Origin: Leucoraja ocellata
Taxonomy: Eukaryota
Direction: 5' to 3'
DNA: 64,000 nt
NCBI GenBank assembly: GCA_036785375.1
Contig: JAWMAR010001141.1
Coordinates: forward strand, 124,001-188,000
This document shows, piece by piece, positions 2,657-47,879 of the stretch. Made by a program: the position numbers and the translations under genes. Position 1 is the stretch's first letter; each line of letters starts with the position of its first letter. The notes beneath the pieces are model-generated. The model ran no database searches. It was given only the letters and a program-made list of their open reading frames with translations, and was not told where the DNA came from.

Positions 2657-4003
2657 GTCTCGACTACGTTGGATCGGTTTGGTCCCTGCACTGCGTTTGA
2701 GTTGTCCTCTTCCTTCTTCACAACTGAAGTCAAACAGTCAATTTCCGTTTAACAGGACATGACTTTGCAGTGGTTCAAGACTTAACTTGGTAACTCACTT
2801 ACCACCTCCCCCAGCCTCCTCACCACGGACAATGCCCCTATCAGGAGTGAGCTGCAACACTCTCCAGTTGCCTGGATTGGAGCATCTCCTCGAAGCTCTG
2901 CTTCATCCTGGTGACGTTTGCCCACTTGACTGGCGCTCTGTCCACCACCGCAAACATTCCCTTGCCCACCCCCTCAAGCCCCACCCCAAATGCGGGCACA
3001 CTGTGTCTGAACTTGTATGGGATTAGGAGGCAGAGATCAGCCATGTTTGAATGGCAGAGTATACTGGATGGGCCGAATGGCCAAATTCTACTCCTGGAAT
3101 GTGTGAACTTGTGATCTGTTTACCCACCTATTTGTCCAGCCTTCCTCAGCTTCTCATCTGTTGAAACAATACCCAGAAGAAAAAAGACACCAACGGAATG
3201 GAGATGAGGAAACACTTTTTCACCCAGACAGTTGTGAGTCTGTGGAATTCTCTGCCTAAGAGAGCGGTGGAGGCCGGTTCTCTGGATGCTTTCAAGAGAG
3301 AGCTAGATAGGCCTCTTAAAGATAGCAGAGTCAGGGGATATGGGGAGAAGGCAGGAACGGGGTACTGATTGTGGATGATCAGCCATGATCACATTGAATG
3401 GTGATGCTGTCTCGAAGGGCCAAATGGTCTATTGCTGCACCTATTGTCTATTGTCTATTGCCAAACGCGATCAGATAAGTCCACTCACGTCACCAGATAA
3501 ACTCCTTGAAAGACAATTCACATACTTGAGCATCGGAGACCGGGTAAAGCTGAGTTTGAGGATGTGATTCATAAAATCATAGAGTGATACAGCAGGGAAA
3601 CAGCTTGCCCAATGCCGATCAAGATGTCCCATGTACGCTGGTCCCTCTTTAGTTTAGTTTAGTTTAGAGATACAGTGGGGAAACAAACCCTCCGGCCCAC
3701 TGTGTCTGCACCGTCCAGTGATCCCCGCACAGCAACACAAATGTTTACATTTACACCAACCCAATTAACCTACAAACCTGTACGTCTTTGGAGTGTGGGA
3801 GGAAACTGAAGTTCTCAGGGAAAACCTATGCAGGTCACTGGGAGAAAGTACAGACTATGTACAGACAAGCACCTATGGCCAGGATCGAACCTGGTTATCT
3901 GGCGCTGTTATACCATGTAAGGCAGCAACTTTATGGCTGCACCACCATAAAAACCAGGCCTGCATTTGACCCCTGTCCCTACAAACCTTTCTTATCAAAA
4001 CCT

Positions 4004-4650
4004 TCATAGCGAAAGGATTTGAGTATAGGAGCAGGGAGGTTCTACTGCAGTTCTACAGGGTACTGGCGAGACCACACCTGGAGTATTGTGTACAGTTTTG
4101 GTCTTCAAATCTGAGGAAAGACATTCTTGTCATAGAGGGAGTACAGAGAAGGTTCAACAGACTGATTCCTGGGATGTCAGGACTTTCATATGAAGAAAGC
4201 CTGGATAGACTCAGCTTGTACTCGCTAGAATTCAGAAGATTGAGGGGGGATCTTATAGAAACTTACAAAATTCTTAAGGGGTTGGACAGGCTAGATGCAG
4301 GAAGATTGTTCCCGATGTTGGGGAAGTCCAGGACAAGGGGTCACAGCTTAAGGATAAGGGGGAAATCCTTTAAAACCGAGATGAGAAGAACTTTTTTCAC
4401 ACAGAGAGTGGTGAATCTCTGGAACTCTCTGCCACAGAGGGTAGTTGAGGCCAGTTCATTGGCTATATTTAAGAAGGAGTTAGATGTGGCCCTTGTGGGT
4501 AAGGGGATCAGGGGGTATGGAGAGAAGGCAGGTACGGGATACTGAGTTGGATGATCAGCCATGATCATATTGAATGGCGGTGCAGGCTCGAAGGGCCTAC
4601 TCCTGCACCTAATTTCTATGTTTCTATGCTCCTGCACCTATTTTCTATGT
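4004..4650 (+). mobile_element. CR1-type LINE 3' fragment
   Basis: LYSLEFRRLRGDLIETYK..FFTQRVVNLWNSLP; (TTTCTATG)n tail. Confidence 0.9.
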
Positions 4651-5351
4651 TTCTATCCACGTACCATGTCCTTATGCTTTTCAATGTTGTTACTAGTACC
4701 TGTCTACACTACCTTCTCTGGACATGCTCCCTCCATGTACCCATCAGCCTCTGTGAGATTACATTGTAGAGGTCGGATTATCCTGTACCTGTATCCTGTG
4801 TATGGCTTGATTGTAATCGTATATAGTGTTTTCATTGACTGGATACATCATACATCAGAAAAGCTTTTCACTGCACCTCTGTACACATGACTATAATAGG
4901 CTAAACTAAAGAGGTTGCCACAGATTCCTTGAATGCAAACATGAAAAGTCATCGCGGTGCTTCCTCATTTCAGAAGCGGTCGGATTTCACATGGTTTTCA
5001 ATGTGAGACCTGTGGTCTAAGTTCAACATTTCCCACGCTGTTTCTAGCAGGAGTCCTGTGTGACTTTACCACGCTAACTGAGCCACATCAAGGCCCAGTG
5101 TTGGGTCCTGCAGTGCAAGCTCAGTGGGTGAAAATAGTAAGATTAAACGAGAACTTACCAGTTTGAAGTTTGATCTGTATTTTATGAGGAGTTACGATGA
5201 GGGATTTCGTGAAGAAGCCCCCTTCCACGCATGCGTGGCATACTTCAAAGCAGCGGTGTGAGGTCACAGGAACCTATAATGATCTAACATAGTAAGATTA
5301 CCAAAGAGATACCAGTTTTTGATATGATCATAAGAGGGTGGGAGCGGAGGG

Positions 5352-5464
5352 CACGAAATCCCTCATCGTAACTCCTCATAAAATACAGATCAAACTTCAA
5401 ACTGGTAAGTTCTCGTTTAATCTTACTATTTTACTTCGGAGTCACGTGAGTGACTTCGTGAAGA
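5352..5464. repeat. DIRS internal complementary region (ICR)
   Basis: 5352-5432 is the exact reverse complement of 5131-5211; 5429-5464 is the exact reverse complement of 10025-10060; the two join at TTTT (circle-junction sequence). Confidence 0.95.
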
Positions 5465-5699
5465 TTTCAAAGCTCTGTGACCTCATGCCGTGGAACGAGT
5501 CCATGCTTCACAAACTGCCTTGGGTATTGGGAGAGAGCATCATTAGTAATTTTAAAACACAATTATACAAAGAGTTGTGTGGTATAACGAAAAAATATAT
5601 AACATTTTTTAAAATTTGAGAATCATAGCCCTGTAACCTTTCGGGCAAATTATTTTGTTGAACATAAAATGTTTTCTTAATACAATGATGGCTCCAAAA

Positions 5700-6330
5700 A
5701 ATAACTGGTTTATTATAAAACCTGTGGAAAAACCCTTTTTGAATGACCATCCTGCCATTCTGAGGATTTGGTCTGTGGGTACCTGTACAATGTTTGCTGC
5801 GGATGTTGCTGCAGCCCTGGTGGAATGAGAGTTAAAACATTAGTGTCTATTTCTGCCATTTTTAGGACCTATTTGAGCCACCTTGATATAGTTTGAGTCG
5901 TGACCCTTTCATGCGGTTTCTTGTAAGAGATAAACAACTCCATTCTCTGACCTCGAATGTTCTTAGTATATTCTATGTATTGTTAGATGTGTCTTGCTAT
6001 ACACAGTCGTTTGCCATATGGGTGTACCATAAATTCAAACACTTGACCAGAGGAACCCGATCTGTTTTCTTTTATTAAATCCTGTATGACAACACCAGTT
6101 TCTCGGTGAGATGATCAGGGAGTCCAGGCTCAGTTTGCTTAATGGCTGGACTTGTTGTGCGGTAAATAACACCATGAGCATAACCATCTTCCTGGACTGT
6201 TACTGAAGTGACAACGCTGTTATGAGCTACAAGCTCCTCAGCATGTTGAGAAACGACACCCACGTCCCAGATTTCGGAGTACCTGGTTTTCTTACCAGGG
6301 GTGCGTTCCCACCGCGTGCCGCTCTGTTCC
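5700..6330 (-). pseudogene. Degenerate DIRS tyrosine recombinase ORF remnant
   Basis: H-x-x-R (HSTR), AGW and the catalytic-Tyr region FHRFYNKP read in shifting frames. Confidence 0.8.
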
Positions 6331-6859
6331 TTGTGATAGGTAATTGGAGAGTGCACTTGTGGCACTATTGATGGCACTGTAGCCCCATCGATTATCATAA
6401 TGGAGTCTTGTTAAAAATCCAATACGGCCAGAAATTCTTGGCCTGTTGGTCGAGGTTGTTGTCCAAGCAGTATATGCCCCATTCTTGATGTGTCCAAGGT
6501 ACTGCTTCCGTGTTGACAGTCTTAGTGCAGATGAGATGAGATTCATCGTCCTGTCTGACAGCCCACTGCCGTGTAGTGGGTCTTTTAGACTCTACCAATC
6601 AATAAATCCATAGTCTTATGGCATGGATGACTGCCTCCAGTCACTGGATAAATTAATAATTTTTGGCTATGTACATTAGGGAACATGGTTCTAACACCAT
6701 CCCCTGTATGACCGAATACCATGATTTAGTAGGCCAGTCGGGTACTCTGAGAATTCCAGATGCCGAGTGAAGTTCAATTTTCCCTAGTACCCCATTGATG
6801 GGGCCGAACGGGGGAAATACATCACCCTATGGCTTTGTTTACATAACAATGCCAAGCTG

Positions 6860-7300
6860 GTTTTAGAATTTTAGTAAATAATATTGGGGCTGATGATTGC
6901 CCCTTTTGTAAGCTCTATATTGCCAAAGTTCCTCTTTTGAGTCAATGCCTGCCATATAGAAAACCGCAGCTGACACCAAGTCTTTATCAATAATAAGAGT
7001 ATCCATCTTAAAATGAATATCTAGAACAAATGTGTTTAGGGTTAAAATCAAATGATAATCCTGCAACCCTACTCTATTTTATTTAATAAATATGTTTGAT
7101 ACAATTCTAATGTTCCATGAAAAGTATGCTCAATCACACCTTTCGTGTACAATTTTTTGTAGCACCATGTGGGTTTTAGATTGTTTGGTTTATGTAAGGA
7201 CAAAATGCCCTTCTGGTGTATGTTGTACTGTGGTTATTGGGATGAGTAAATCCTATCAGATAACCCTGAATACTGCTGAGATTATATGAATCTGTAGTGA
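6860..7300 (-). pseudogene. Degenerate, internally deleted DIRS reverse transcriptase remnant
   Basis: ORF 6863-7066 contains LNTFV..HFKMDT..MAGID..LWQYRA, resembling DIRS RT motifs with deletions. Confidence 0.7.
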
Positions 7301-8827
7301 TTATATACCATACATAACTGTAGTGTTGCAACCTCCCCTCCATCGTAGGTCCCTATTTTAACAGAATAAACCCCACCCACCTACCTCCATGGTTACTGGT
7401 GGTTGAGTTATTTCCTTGGTTTTTTGAAAAGGAGGTTCTGGTTTGATATCTCTTGTTCGGGGTTATGTGGGAGGTTGAGGCTTCCGCATCTTCCAGGGTG
7501 GCCGCCCTGGCCATACCCTAAAAAAGGATCCTGCGGGTTATATTGATTTCTGGCACTGCCACTGGTATGAGCCACATTTTTTATGGCCTTGCCTGTGGCT
7601 GGTATCATGCCCCAAAATAGGCCCTTGCGCTGGCCTTGATGAGCCCCAGTGTCTTGGCTTTGTCCACCCACGGTTCTTTGTTTGCAAATGGTAGCATTTT
7701 GGGGTCCTAGTGCTGGCTGAATGGCCGCCTTCCACGTGTAGTTCAGGTCATATTGCATATTACTAAACAGAGCTAGTGCGTCTTGATGGTCTTGGTTACC
7801 TACGTTTAGTCCAGGGTGCGGGTGTATGCTATGATGCCTTCCGTGAATCCCTTTAAGGTTCTCTGGATCTTGAGGTCCTGGTTCCTGATGTTCGTCCCCA
7901 TATGCTGCCAAATGCATTGGTTTACACTGGGCACCTGTAATGCCTCACCGTTGCCAGGTGGCAGATGTCTGGCCAGTGTCTGTAAATTTTTCTTGTTGGC
8001 GTTTGTGGCCAGACATATAGTAATACTATTGCCATCCTGGATCCAAGTCTACCCATGTTTGACTTGGCTAAAGTAATCAGCCACCATGTCCAGCAGAGTC
8101 CCTGCTGTGTTAGGATCATGGGATGCTGTATTACCAGGCTCTGGCCCATCAGGGTCCTGCCTACTCTTTTTTATAGAGTTAGAGATCTCTAGGGTCCCGC
8201 ACGGGGTACCCATGTGGGGCTTAACTGCTGCCCACTTGTCTTTTTGTTCTGCGGACCCCTCTTGCAAGTCAACCCAGAACTGACCCACAGTGCTCCCCTC
8301 TGATGGGGTAGAAGCATTGTGCAGCCCTCAAAGAGGTACTGCTGTGGTTTTATCACGTTGGAGCAAGACTCCATACACCGCTTCTTCCACTCCAGCCCTC
8401 TCAGCGCTGGTTGGCGGCAGTATTATGCAAAGTCGGACCCTCTGAGTCCACTACCTTGTTTGATATGTGTCTAGCCTTACCGCTCGGCCGCATGGATCTG
8501 GCCGGTGCGGGGCCGACATCGGGCACAGCTGATCCCACTACGGATGATCCAAGTGCCGCTGGCTGCTGCTGGCTGCCCGCTGTTCCATGGTCCTCCTTCT
8601 CCAGTTTTGTCCTTCCTTCCGTGGAGTGGATATGGCCGGTGTGGAGGATAACTGGCACAGCTGCTTCCATCTATTCCTTTAACCCGGCTCCAACGCTCTC
8701 AGCACTCCTGGCTGCTCCTTTATCTTAGACCCCTGGGACCGACCCCCATACTGACGGTACTGGTCCCTTGCAGTCGTTGCAGACGGTCAACCCCACTCTA
8801 ATGCCCTCAATTCTGGACACTCCTACT

Positions 8828-8885
8828 TATATGGTCCTTAGATAAGGGACATATAAGACATTCAAACTGATGATAACAGCTACTA
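8828..8885 (-). pseudogene. Second, more diverged partial U2 copy (about U2 nt 34-92) in tandem
   Basis: TAGTAGCTGTTATCATCAGTTTGAATGTCTTATATGTCCCTTATCTAAGGACCATATA aligns to the copy at 8894-8989. Confidence 0.75.
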
Positions 8886-8893
8886 TAGTTTTT

Positions 8894-8989
8894 ATTTAAT
8901 ATATGGTCCCTAGATAAGGGATGAATCAGATATTAAACTGATAAGAACAGATACTACACTTGATCTTAGCCAAAAGGCCCAGAAGTGAT
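8894..8989 (-). pseudogene. U2 snRNA-derived sequence, about nt 1-96, truncated before the Sm site
   Basis: ATCACTTCTGGGCCTTTTGGCTAAGATCAAGTGTAGTATCTGTTCTTATCAGTTTAATATCTGA...GGGACCATATATTAAAT matches the vertebrate U2 5' half; followed by AAAAA instead of GGATTTTTGG. Confidence 0.93.
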
Positions 8990-10383
8990 TATTGTAACTA
9001 AAAACCCCGCTGGGACCGACCCTGGTACTCACATACTGGTCCCTTGTAGTAGATTGCAGCCAGTCAACTGCAAAGTCCTTTGCTGCCGAGAAATGAATTT
9101 TCTCACCGTGCTGGAGCGAAGTTGGGCACCGGTGTTTTCCCTCTCCGGGAATCGATGTGCCCATGCTGCTCCTGCCGTTGCCAGCTCCTGCCGCTGCCAG
9201 CGCTCCTGCCGTTGCCAGCTCCTGCCGCTGCTGCCGCTGCCGCTGCCGACTGCCGTTACTGCTCTCCTGCCGGCTGCCTGCACTCCGCGGTTCTCCCGCC
9301 GGCATTCTGCAGCTAACATGGACCCAGTCCATGTCTGCACCTAAAGGTAAGTGGAAGGAAACGCAGAGTCTCCTACCTGCGGTTCCCGACTTTTCATACT
9401 CCCGCTGGTGAACGTTGTTCCCTGCGTGTCGGGTTGGAGCCGCTCGGACCGACCCCGGTGTTCACGGGCCTGGTCCATTCGCGGCAGTTCCTGTACCTAT
9501 GGATCCCCTGGACCAACCCCGGTGCTTACCTTTTGAAGAAGGTTTTCAGCCCGGACGTCCAGTTCCTACTCCATAGTGCCGCTGCACTCGCTGAGCGTTT
9601 CCAGCCCTGCTGTGTACCCCGGGTACTTACAGCGCTGGTCCCTGCTCTCTGTCCCGCAGCCTTCGCGCTGGCCGCTAGCGACTGTTCCAAGCCAGTCTCG
9701 CTAAAGACTGGCATACGGGACCTCTTTGCTTTGCTTCCCGCCCGGCCGAGAGGTGAATTTTGCCGGTGCGGGAGCAAAGTCGGGCACAGGTTGTTCCCCT
9801 CCAGGGAAACTCGTGCTGTTGCTGCTGCCGGCTGCTCGCCCTCCACGGGTCTCCCCGCCAGCTTTCCGCAGCCACCTAAAAGTAAGTAGTAAAAAGGGAA
9901 AACGCAGAGTCTCTTACCTGCTGTTCCCGACTTTCAAATTCTCCCGCTTGGGGAACGCCGTTCCCCCCTGTGTGACTCGTTGCAATGCGTGTAGCGATAT
10001 GACACGCATGCGTGGAAGCGGGCTTCTTCACGAAGTCACTCACGTGACTCCGAAGTAAAACTATTGAGTGAGTTAGAGAGATGTTGGTTCAGTTCCCCCT
10101 CCAGAACGCTGAGCACGGAAGGAGTGTTGTACCGGGGGAGCTCTGCTATGGAAACATAGAAAATAGGCGCTGGAGTAGGCCATTCGGCCCTTTGAACCAT
10201 TCAATATGATCGTGGCAGATCAACCTAAATCAGTACCCAGTTCCTGCTCTCTCCCCATATCCCTTGATTCTGTTTGTCTTATGCACTGTGTCTAAAGTAG
10301 CTGAAGGTGCTGTCACTCTGATGAGGCATTTAGCTGGCCTGCTGCTCTGCTGTCTGCTCTCACAAGCCTGCTCTCTCTCTTCA

Positions 10384-10710
10384 GGGCGGCACGGTGGTGC
10401 AGCGGTTTGCTGCTGCCTCACAGCGCCAGAGACCCGGGTTCGATCCCCACTACGGGTGCTGTCTGTGTGGAGTTTGAATGTTCTCCCTGTGACCTCGTGG
10501 GTTTCCTCCTTGTGCTCCGGCTTCCTCCCACATCCCCAATCCATGCAAGTTTGTAGGTTAAATACCTCTGAAAATTTTGTTGCAAATATGTAGGGAATGA
10601 ATGAGAAAGTGGGATAACAGAATTAGTGTGTACAGGTGATCAGTGGTCGGCGTGGACTCGGTGGATCAATGGTCCAGTTTCCATGCGGTATCTCTAAACC
10701 AAACTAATCA
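10384..10710 (+). mobile_element. HE1-type SINE
   Basis: Head, core and tail as in 14776-15090. Confidence 0.85.
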
Positions 10711-10717
10711 ACCAAAC

Positions 10718-11187
10718 AAGATTGATCCCTGGGATGGCGGGACTGTCATATGTGGAAAGATTGAAAAGACTCGGCTTGTATTCGCTGGAGTTTAGGGGAT
10801 CTTATAGAAACATGTAAAATTATAAAAGGACTGGAAAAGCTAGATGCAGGAAATTAGTTCCCAATGTTGGCTAGTCCAGAACCAGGGGCAACAGTTTTGG
10901 AATAAAGGGGAGGCCATTTAAGACTGAGATGAGAAAAAATGTTTTCACCCAGAGAGTTGTGAATTTGTGGAATTCCCTGCCACAGAGGGCAGTGGAGGCG
11001 AAATGACTGGATGGATTGAAGAGAGAGTTAGATAGAGCTCTCGGGGCTGCTGGAATCAAGGGATATGGAGACAAGGCAGGCACGGGTTATTGATTGGGGA
11101 CGATCAGCTATGATCACAATGAATGGCGGTGCTGGCTCGAAGTGCCGCATGGCCTCCTCCTGCACCTATTTTCTATGTTTCTATGTT
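10718..11187 (+). mobile_element. CR1-type LINE 3' fragment
   Basis: Same ORF2 C-terminus and 3' UTR as 4004-4650. Confidence 0.85.
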
Positions 11188-11489
11188 TATCTTTCTCATA
11201 CCCCACGTTATCCTTGCCTGTTCCTCCATCGAAACTAGCACCGATCTACAATAAATAGCTACATGAATCATATTACCAGACACAGCACCCCAAGTATTGT
11301 ATAAGCGTTGCATAATCACTTGCTTTTAGGAAAGAATTATGCCAAAGAGCAGAACTGGTTTTGTTTAAAAGGCTGTTTATTAACAAACATATTTTATTGG
11401 TTAACCTAAGCTGCTCTTGTCATTGGAGGCGAGAACAGTAAATTAGTGATCAATTGATATAATAACCAGATGGGTTTTTCAAAAGCATC

Positions 11490-47806: not shown

Positions 47807-47879
47807 CGCCCGAACAGGGACTTGAACCCTGGACCCTCAGATTAAAAGTCTGATGCTCTACCGACTGAGCTATCCGGGC
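47807..47879 (-). tRNA. tRNA-Lys, anticodon TTT
   Basis: 73 nt GCCCGGATAGCTCAGTCGGTAGAGCATCAGACTTTTAATCTGAGGGTCCAGGGTTCAAGTCCCTGTTCGGGCG; intact A/B boxes and cloverleaf, no encoded CCA, followed by TTCATTTTT Pol III terminator. Confidence 0.97.

Follow-up and report, generated by a model that had tools for sequence, protein, structure and literature searches.

We identified in the window (the whole 64,000-nt stretch of DNA analysed here) a young member of a non-autonomous DIRS family that numbers several hundred to a thousand copies and carries two pieces of U2 snRNA sequence in its leader. The cassette is present throughout the family, which has lost its coding capacity and has an intact partner family; the two pieces were captured one after the other and have decayed without compensatory change. 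Moreover, the capture of snRNA recurs across DIRS families and extends to U1 and U6, which the original prediction, made from the sequence of the window, did not include. Two successive captures, in which the DIRS RT switched onto co-packaged U2 RNA and back and the captured sequence was then carried as a passenger, probably account for the cassette.

The DIRS element and its U2 cassette

The window element is DIRS-like by structure and not autonomous (Table 1). The DIRS order of gag, RT/RH/MT and tyrosine recombinase is present as relics (tblastn with the intact family), ITRs and an ICR are found, and the ends are T-rich and lack a target-site duplication, as judged by eye from the flanks of 20 family copies. 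A Pfam scan of nine window fragments returned no relevant family. The reading frames of the window copy are broken, the longest stop-free stretch in the pol/recombinase half of 28 copies being 111-191 aa, and pol residues 280-619 are missing in 28/28 full-length family copies. On either side of the element lie 3' fragments of an abundant LINE-like repeat (3970-4660 and 10700-11190, 75-88% alike), which is probably of the CR1/L2 family. The window also holds a tRNA-Lys(TTT) gene at 47807-47879 (-), with 74 bits.

Table 1. Features of the DIRS element in the window (window positions).
Feature	Position	Strand	Description or basis
Non-autonomous DIRS element	5131..10060	-	4,930 bp; T-rich ends; without target duplication
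Left ITR, 63 nt	9998..10060	-	Element nt 10-63 pairs with nt 4819-4873; nt 1-36 with ICR
Putative splice-like module in leader, 42 nt	9876..9917	-	5' splice-site match, pyrimidine tract and AG
Upstream copy of cassette-bracketing duplication	9004..9068	-	Repeat comparison
Younger U2 capture, nt 1-96, ending before Sm site	8894..8989	-	Rfam and comparison with host U2
Older, decayed U2 capture, remainder (about nt 29-90)	8828..8890	-	Derived changes in common with single-copy subfamilies L232, L234, L239, L245
Downstream copy of cassette-bracketing duplication	8730..8791	-	Repeat comparison
gag relic	7887..8096	-	tblastn with gag of intact family L171, E 2e-14
pol relic	6588..7567	-	Intact-protein residues 1-263 and 626-703; RT core to RNase H deleted
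Tyrosine recombinase relic, with stops and frameshifts	5729..6591	-	Comparison with intact family
3' region	5131..5464	-	ICR 5464-5352; right ITR 5242-5188; 3' end 5211-5131

The cassette matches the Rfam U2 family at 8989-8884 (-), with 102.4 bits and an E value of 1.6e-19. The reference used was the host's own 191-nt U2 gene (locus L041), from which the sequence derives. The first piece (8989-8894) is about 96% identical to U2 nt 1-96; it begins 1,071 nt into the element and stops two bases short of the Sm motif of the host gene. The second piece (8885-8828) corresponds to nt 34-90 at 86% and is extendable to about nt 29. The original prediction had described a 96-nt U2 5' half in sense, stopping just before the Sm site and followed by a second, more diverged partial copy, and this description is confirmed by Rfam and the host gene. 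Of the five As after nt 96, which the original prediction had noted as fitting a one-off 3'-truncated retropseudogene, two belong to the older U2 copy.

When 20 copies were selected by the recombinase end, 19 proved to have both U2 pieces and the twentieth matched only the element's 3' part. U2 was likewise present in all 30 copies picked by a motif in the downstream flank (26 double and four single, the first 30 of the motif matches). Copies with U2 at the same position, which the original prediction had named as a check, are thus the rule. The flank motif, 15 nt long, matches exactly at 1,029 sites (control 3), a figure that does not equal copy number because some subfamilies carry the motif twice, and the double-cassette junction does so at 554 (control 13). 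The cassette is spanned by all of the 40 best matches to a 701-nt query that encloses it, a biased set, and no U2-free member occurs among 125 loci with the downstream flank, a set that was partly U2-selected. At locus L036 the match is confined to 7054-5131. The copies nearest to the window copy are 97-99% identical, and the window subfamily was therefore mobile recently.

An intact, apparently young autonomous DIRS family (L171, L173-L178) encodes a gag of about 357, a pol of about 700 and a recombinase of 324 aa, with RVT_1 and Phage_integrase above the Pfam cut-off and Dam weakly matched. The window family resembles it at about 95% in the 3' end and ICR and at about 70% in the coding relics. 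Because the intact family has near-identical ends and the window family is without coding capacity, mobilisation of the latter is likely to occur in trans. Rfam families were found in 0/20 other DIRS loci, intact ones included. As a query, the intact-family recombinase returned 24,857 first-look candidates. At locus L283, a family-A copy directly adjoins other DIRS ends and coding parts in opposite orientation, which suggests insertion of one DIRS element into or next to another.

The history of the cassette is recorded in its subfamilies. One of them has just one U2 piece, nt 1-90 (97-100% identity), directly abutted by the copies of a 106-112-nt duplication. The direct repeats of about 60 bp that the original prediction had placed around the cassette do bracket it (62 nt at 85%; repeat family D6, with a third copy at 9440-9479), and they are what is left of this longer duplication. 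In other single-copy subfamilies U2 has decayed to 81-90% and the branch-point sequence is altered. The second piece of the double cassette has derived changes in common with these decayed subfamilies, and the fresh first piece includes nt 91-96, absent from every single-copy subfamily; together these features therefore point to a second capture from U2 RNA. An old U2 1-90 decayed first, and its front, some 28 bases, was then exchanged for fresh U2 1-96, the position of the 5' junction being kept exactly. Repeated capture, which had been proposed from the unequal divergence of the two copies, is thereby substantiated. A tree of the flanks, distorted by copies with insertions or deletions, served only to group copies.

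Recurrent snRNA captures in DIRS elements

We found 13 snRNA captures in DIRS elements (10 U2, one U1 and two U6), in lineages that are mostly 53-81% identical in the recombinase region, row D of the identity table being misaligned and not comparable with the other rows. All 13 are in sense orientation (two-sided p 0.0002). In a scan for short duplications, the longest junction repeat was at most 6 nt in 13/13 captures versus at least 10 nt in 20 of 40 U6 loci outside DIRS, some of which are duplicates, and an L1-type target duplication of 8-30 nt was seen at none of the captures. Alignment places the start of nine of the ten U2 captures at nt 1. The upstream flanks inspected are unlike the upstream DNA of the U2 gene, and the 3' flank of the gene is absent from every capture. 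Five lineage-level captures stop at nt 90-96, immediately ahead of the Sm site, and four U2 captures end with about 3-5 extra As.

The captures occupy unrelated positions in their elements (ITR end, leader, RT and MT), and several have deletions, a duplication or microhomology at their junctions, the microhomology being short or absent at several junctions and most captures being without a close empty parent on hand. Family B, which is derived directly from the intact family and is 96-99% identical to this parent, carries U2 1-95 and three As in place of 139 nt of the methyltransferase region, with a 3-nt microhomology at the 5' junction. In one capture, U2 and the intact family's leader match over 6 nt. 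Element nt 61, where the left ITR ends on its inner side, is the starting point of two long and independent U2 captures (1-181 and 1-174; L292:790 and L293:790, G000:C57 and C99), found in two DIRS lineages about 53% identical in the recombinase region. One further DIRS copy (L261, G000:C134) contains two U2 captures at separate sites (about 5-88 and 1-171).

A search with a U2 5' pattern gave 414 exact matches, the first 100 of which were classified (87 read and 13 recognised by position as known family copies). Of these, 70 belong to the window family and 14 to seven further captures in DIRS; 13 are Keno-like heads, ORF1 confirming four and a common head sequence the others, one is unclassified and two lie outside DIRS. 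The share of the window family agrees with the original suggestion that a DIRS family disperses U2-like DNA. A U2 3'-half pattern has 545 matches, many in arrays, and added one DIRS capture and one retrocopy outside DIRS. The reading of 114,466 candidates as a U2-derived SINE was rejected on the strength of these exact counts.

Among the matches classified, and with Keno excluded, 10 of 13 U2 events lie inside DIRS and three outside, DIRS making up, on a rough estimate, no more than about 3.6% of the genome. For U1, one event lies in DIRS and five outside (30 of 32 pattern matches and six further loci), and for U6, two of 42 loci are in DIRS. The comparison of U2 with U1 inside and outside DIRS (10:3 versus 1:5) gives p 0.04 from uneven samples; a p-value for U2 versus U1 and U6 together is based on a rough count and was not relied on. 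DIRS-internal events are over-sampled because DIRS elements amplify. Keno-like Tx1 elements (L090, L092, L093, L099, L260, L264-L266) carry roughly 50 nt of U2 5' sequence as a head and encode a zinc knuckle in ORF1, and their junctions in U2 gene arrays join poly(A) to U2 nt 38 (nt 37/38 junctions in L260, L264-L266). LINE-type snRNA retrocopies are also present in the genome (L123, L196, L220, L301).

Origin and role of the captured sequence

The sense orientation of the captures, their start at nt 1 without gene-flanking DNA, and the deletions, duplication and microhomology at their junctions fit a switch out and back during minus-strand synthesis. We hypothesize that snRNA, mostly U2, enters DIRS particles and is co-packaged with the RT. 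During minus-strand synthesis the RT would leave the DIRS RNA and enter U2, in many cases immediately 5' of the Sm site or where a short oligo(A) ends the RNA, copy U2 to nt 1, and return to the DIRS RNA, an upstream return giving a deletion (as in family B) and a downstream return a duplication (about 110 nt in the window family). After decay of the first copy, a second switch returning through the 5' homology of the old copy would yield the tandem cassette, with gag, RT and recombinase provided in trans by the intact family. Use of U2 as a primer was rejected, the captured pieces being in sense. Precedents for single components of this scheme are reported: MLV packages pre-U2 and adenylated non-coding RNAs (PMC4378196), template switching gives rise to snRNA-LINE chimeras, and snRNA copies linked to LTR elements have been described in small numbers (PMC4476161, citing Giles et al. 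2004). According to PMC7192593, the left repeat is largely missing from the DIRS-1 transcript, for which no primer is known; the two independent captures at nt 61 sit where the model in that paper puts the RNA 5' end.

A related explanation retains the same route of capture and proposes that a fresh U2 5' half helps the non-autonomous RNA in stability, export, packaging or splice-site shielding, so that lineages with a new copy are favoured. The lack of a U2-free member in the partly U2-selected downstream-flank loci, the dominance of the re-captured double form (26 of 30 motif-picked copies) and the amplification of several U2 carriers, all of those examined having broken frames nonetheless, agree with this proposal. 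So does the branch-point sequence at nt 33-38, intact in 18/18 double copies (motif-picked, from the 22 of 30 left after duplicate removal, and resting on one capture event), as does the oldest-looking single-copy subfamily, in which the duplicated flanks are 8-10% apart and U2 departs from the host sequence at 0-2 of 90 sites. This better preservation of U2 than of the flanking duplication is a weak hint of either refreshing or constraint, and together with double-form dominance and the intact branch point it would fit selection, refreshing by homologous switching, or chance. Against useful cargo, the young U2 piece changes as fast as its flanks, with 0.36 non-CpG changes per site versus 0.31-0.50 in 93 double-cassette copies (seven with large gaps having been dropped, and many having been picked by similarity to the window or by an exact U2 pattern, so that change in nt 11-45 is masked). 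Moreover, the 84 changed cells in stems I, IIa and IIb (38 haplotypes) comprise 13 wobble, 71 broken and no compensatory changes, subfamilies with a damaged branch-point sequence and U2 at 81-90% were still amplified (4 of 30 motif-picked copies), the captures lie at unrelated positions and intact elements lack U2. The original prediction had raised the possibility of a functional Sm-less U2 mimic and named compensatory change in stems IIa and IIb as a check on it; the stem comparison and the rate both speak against the mimic. We therefore regard useful cargo as unlikely; the U2 sequence is likely to be a passenger, and snRNA captures are likely to reflect a copying habit of the RT.

A variant of this proposal, which we consider equally doubtful, is that DIRS particles select U2, possibly via the leader module, and that a fresh U2 5' half favours non-autonomous elements that renew decayed cargo. 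Candidate splice-like modules of 33-42 nt similar to that in the leader occur in the leaders of other DIRS families (L170-L189, L283-L292), including the intact one, where the module lies just before an ATG; the window has a second module of this type at 9383-9341. A 5' splice-site match was found in 24 of 34 DIRS loci scanned. Precise removal of the leader module was seen in none of 113 copies, and one of 30 deletion types in these copies has GT..AG ends (8744-8456, four copies), which, given its poor splice consensus, was taken as chance and rejected as a sign of spliced genomic copies.

Other routes would bring U2 sequence into genomic DIRS DNA. Insertion by LINE machinery of 3'-truncated (tailless) U2 retrocopies into genomic DIRS copies, amplified later, would draw on a process that has left LINE-type snRNA retrocopies in this genome, and would suit both the 5'-complete, 3'-truncated pieces, which resemble tailless retropseudogenes (PMC5322556), and the extra As that end four U2 captures. 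It is nevertheless improbable in view of the uniform sense orientation, the absence of 8-30-nt duplications (that of the window family, at 110 nt, being far beyond this range), the concentration of U2 events in a DIRS fraction that holds only 2/42 U6 loci, and a second capture that kept the old 5' junction position exactly. Recombination or repair at the DNA level could have copied pieces of U2 genes into DIRS DNA, and such genes are abundant, as the 3'-half matches and their arrays attest; the starts at nt 1 in 9/10 captures, with upstream flanks unlike U2 gene upstream DNA and without 3' flank, therefore point to an RNA template and make this route very improbable. Finally, a one-off U2 retropseudogene in a dead copy would be compatible with the broken frames of the window copy, and is ruled out by the same-position cassette in both independently picked sets (19/20 and 30/30). 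Switching of the DIRS RT onto U2 RNA and back thus remains the preferred reading.

Comparison with known systems

DIRS replication is poorly understood (PMC7192593), and captured snRNAs offer a genomic record of host RNAs likely to lie beside the DIRS RT and of where that RT leaves its template. Annotation will also list the hundreds of mobile U2 pieces as U2 genes or pseudogenes, and U2 reads can be absorbed by them. We found no description of snRNA capture by DIRS in the literature as judged by titles and abstract starts; Repbase, subscription journals and supplements lay outside this search and may hold prior art. The window family resembles DIRS-like tyrosine-recombinase retrotransposons (PMC7192593, PMC9210276) in its ITRs, ICR, gag-RT/RH/MT-recombinase order and lack of target duplication, and differs by the pol deletion common to the family and by its snRNA pieces; the term snRNA does not occur in the accessible part of PMC9210276.

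Among elements that combine small-RNA sequence with mobility, Cassandra, Helenus and Ajax (TRIMp3; PMC10886601) are likewise non-autonomous dispersers of small-RNA-derived sequence, being LTR elements with 5S or tRNA sequence in their LTRs and proposed Pol III promoters; neither DIRS nor snRNA occurs as a term in the accessible part of that paper. The window DIRS element, in contrast, has inverted ends and an internal, decaying piece that begins at the RNA's first base without gene-upstream DNA, and it does not have small-RNA sequence in direct LTRs with a PBS and PPT. U2 promoters are located upstream of the RNA, and the cassette begins at nt 1. SINEU of crocodilians also contains U2-derived sequence, in the form of a U1/U2 head at the 5' end of a short non-LTR element moved by non-LTR machinery (PMC4494074, the accessible part of which does not use the term DIRS), whereas U2 here lies well inside a DIRS element. 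Keno inserts into U2 genes (PMC4494074), and the Keno-like elements of the present genome are a separate class: Keno and Utopia leave U2 halves outside the element, and in the window U2 lies within it. Tailless retropseudogenes (PMC5322556) are made by L1 and defined with 8-35-nt target duplications; the captures share their 5'-complete, 3'-truncated form, and 0/13 have such a duplication, the oldest capture being associated with one of 106-112 nt.

In its working, DIRS snRNA capture is like a retroviral transduction or an snRNA-LINE chimera. Retroviruses package host snRNA in the form of pre-U2, together with adenylated non-coding RNAs (PMC4378196); for DIRS such packaging is proposed from the captures, which have been amplified to hundreds of copies. 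Template switching likewise joins snRNA to a retrotransposon in U6/L1 and other snRNA-LINE chimeras (PMC4476161), where the snRNA, mostly U6, forms the 5' end of one insertion that has a target duplication. Capture by DIRS, conversely, would need a switch both out and back, and its product is internal, still mobile and mostly U2.
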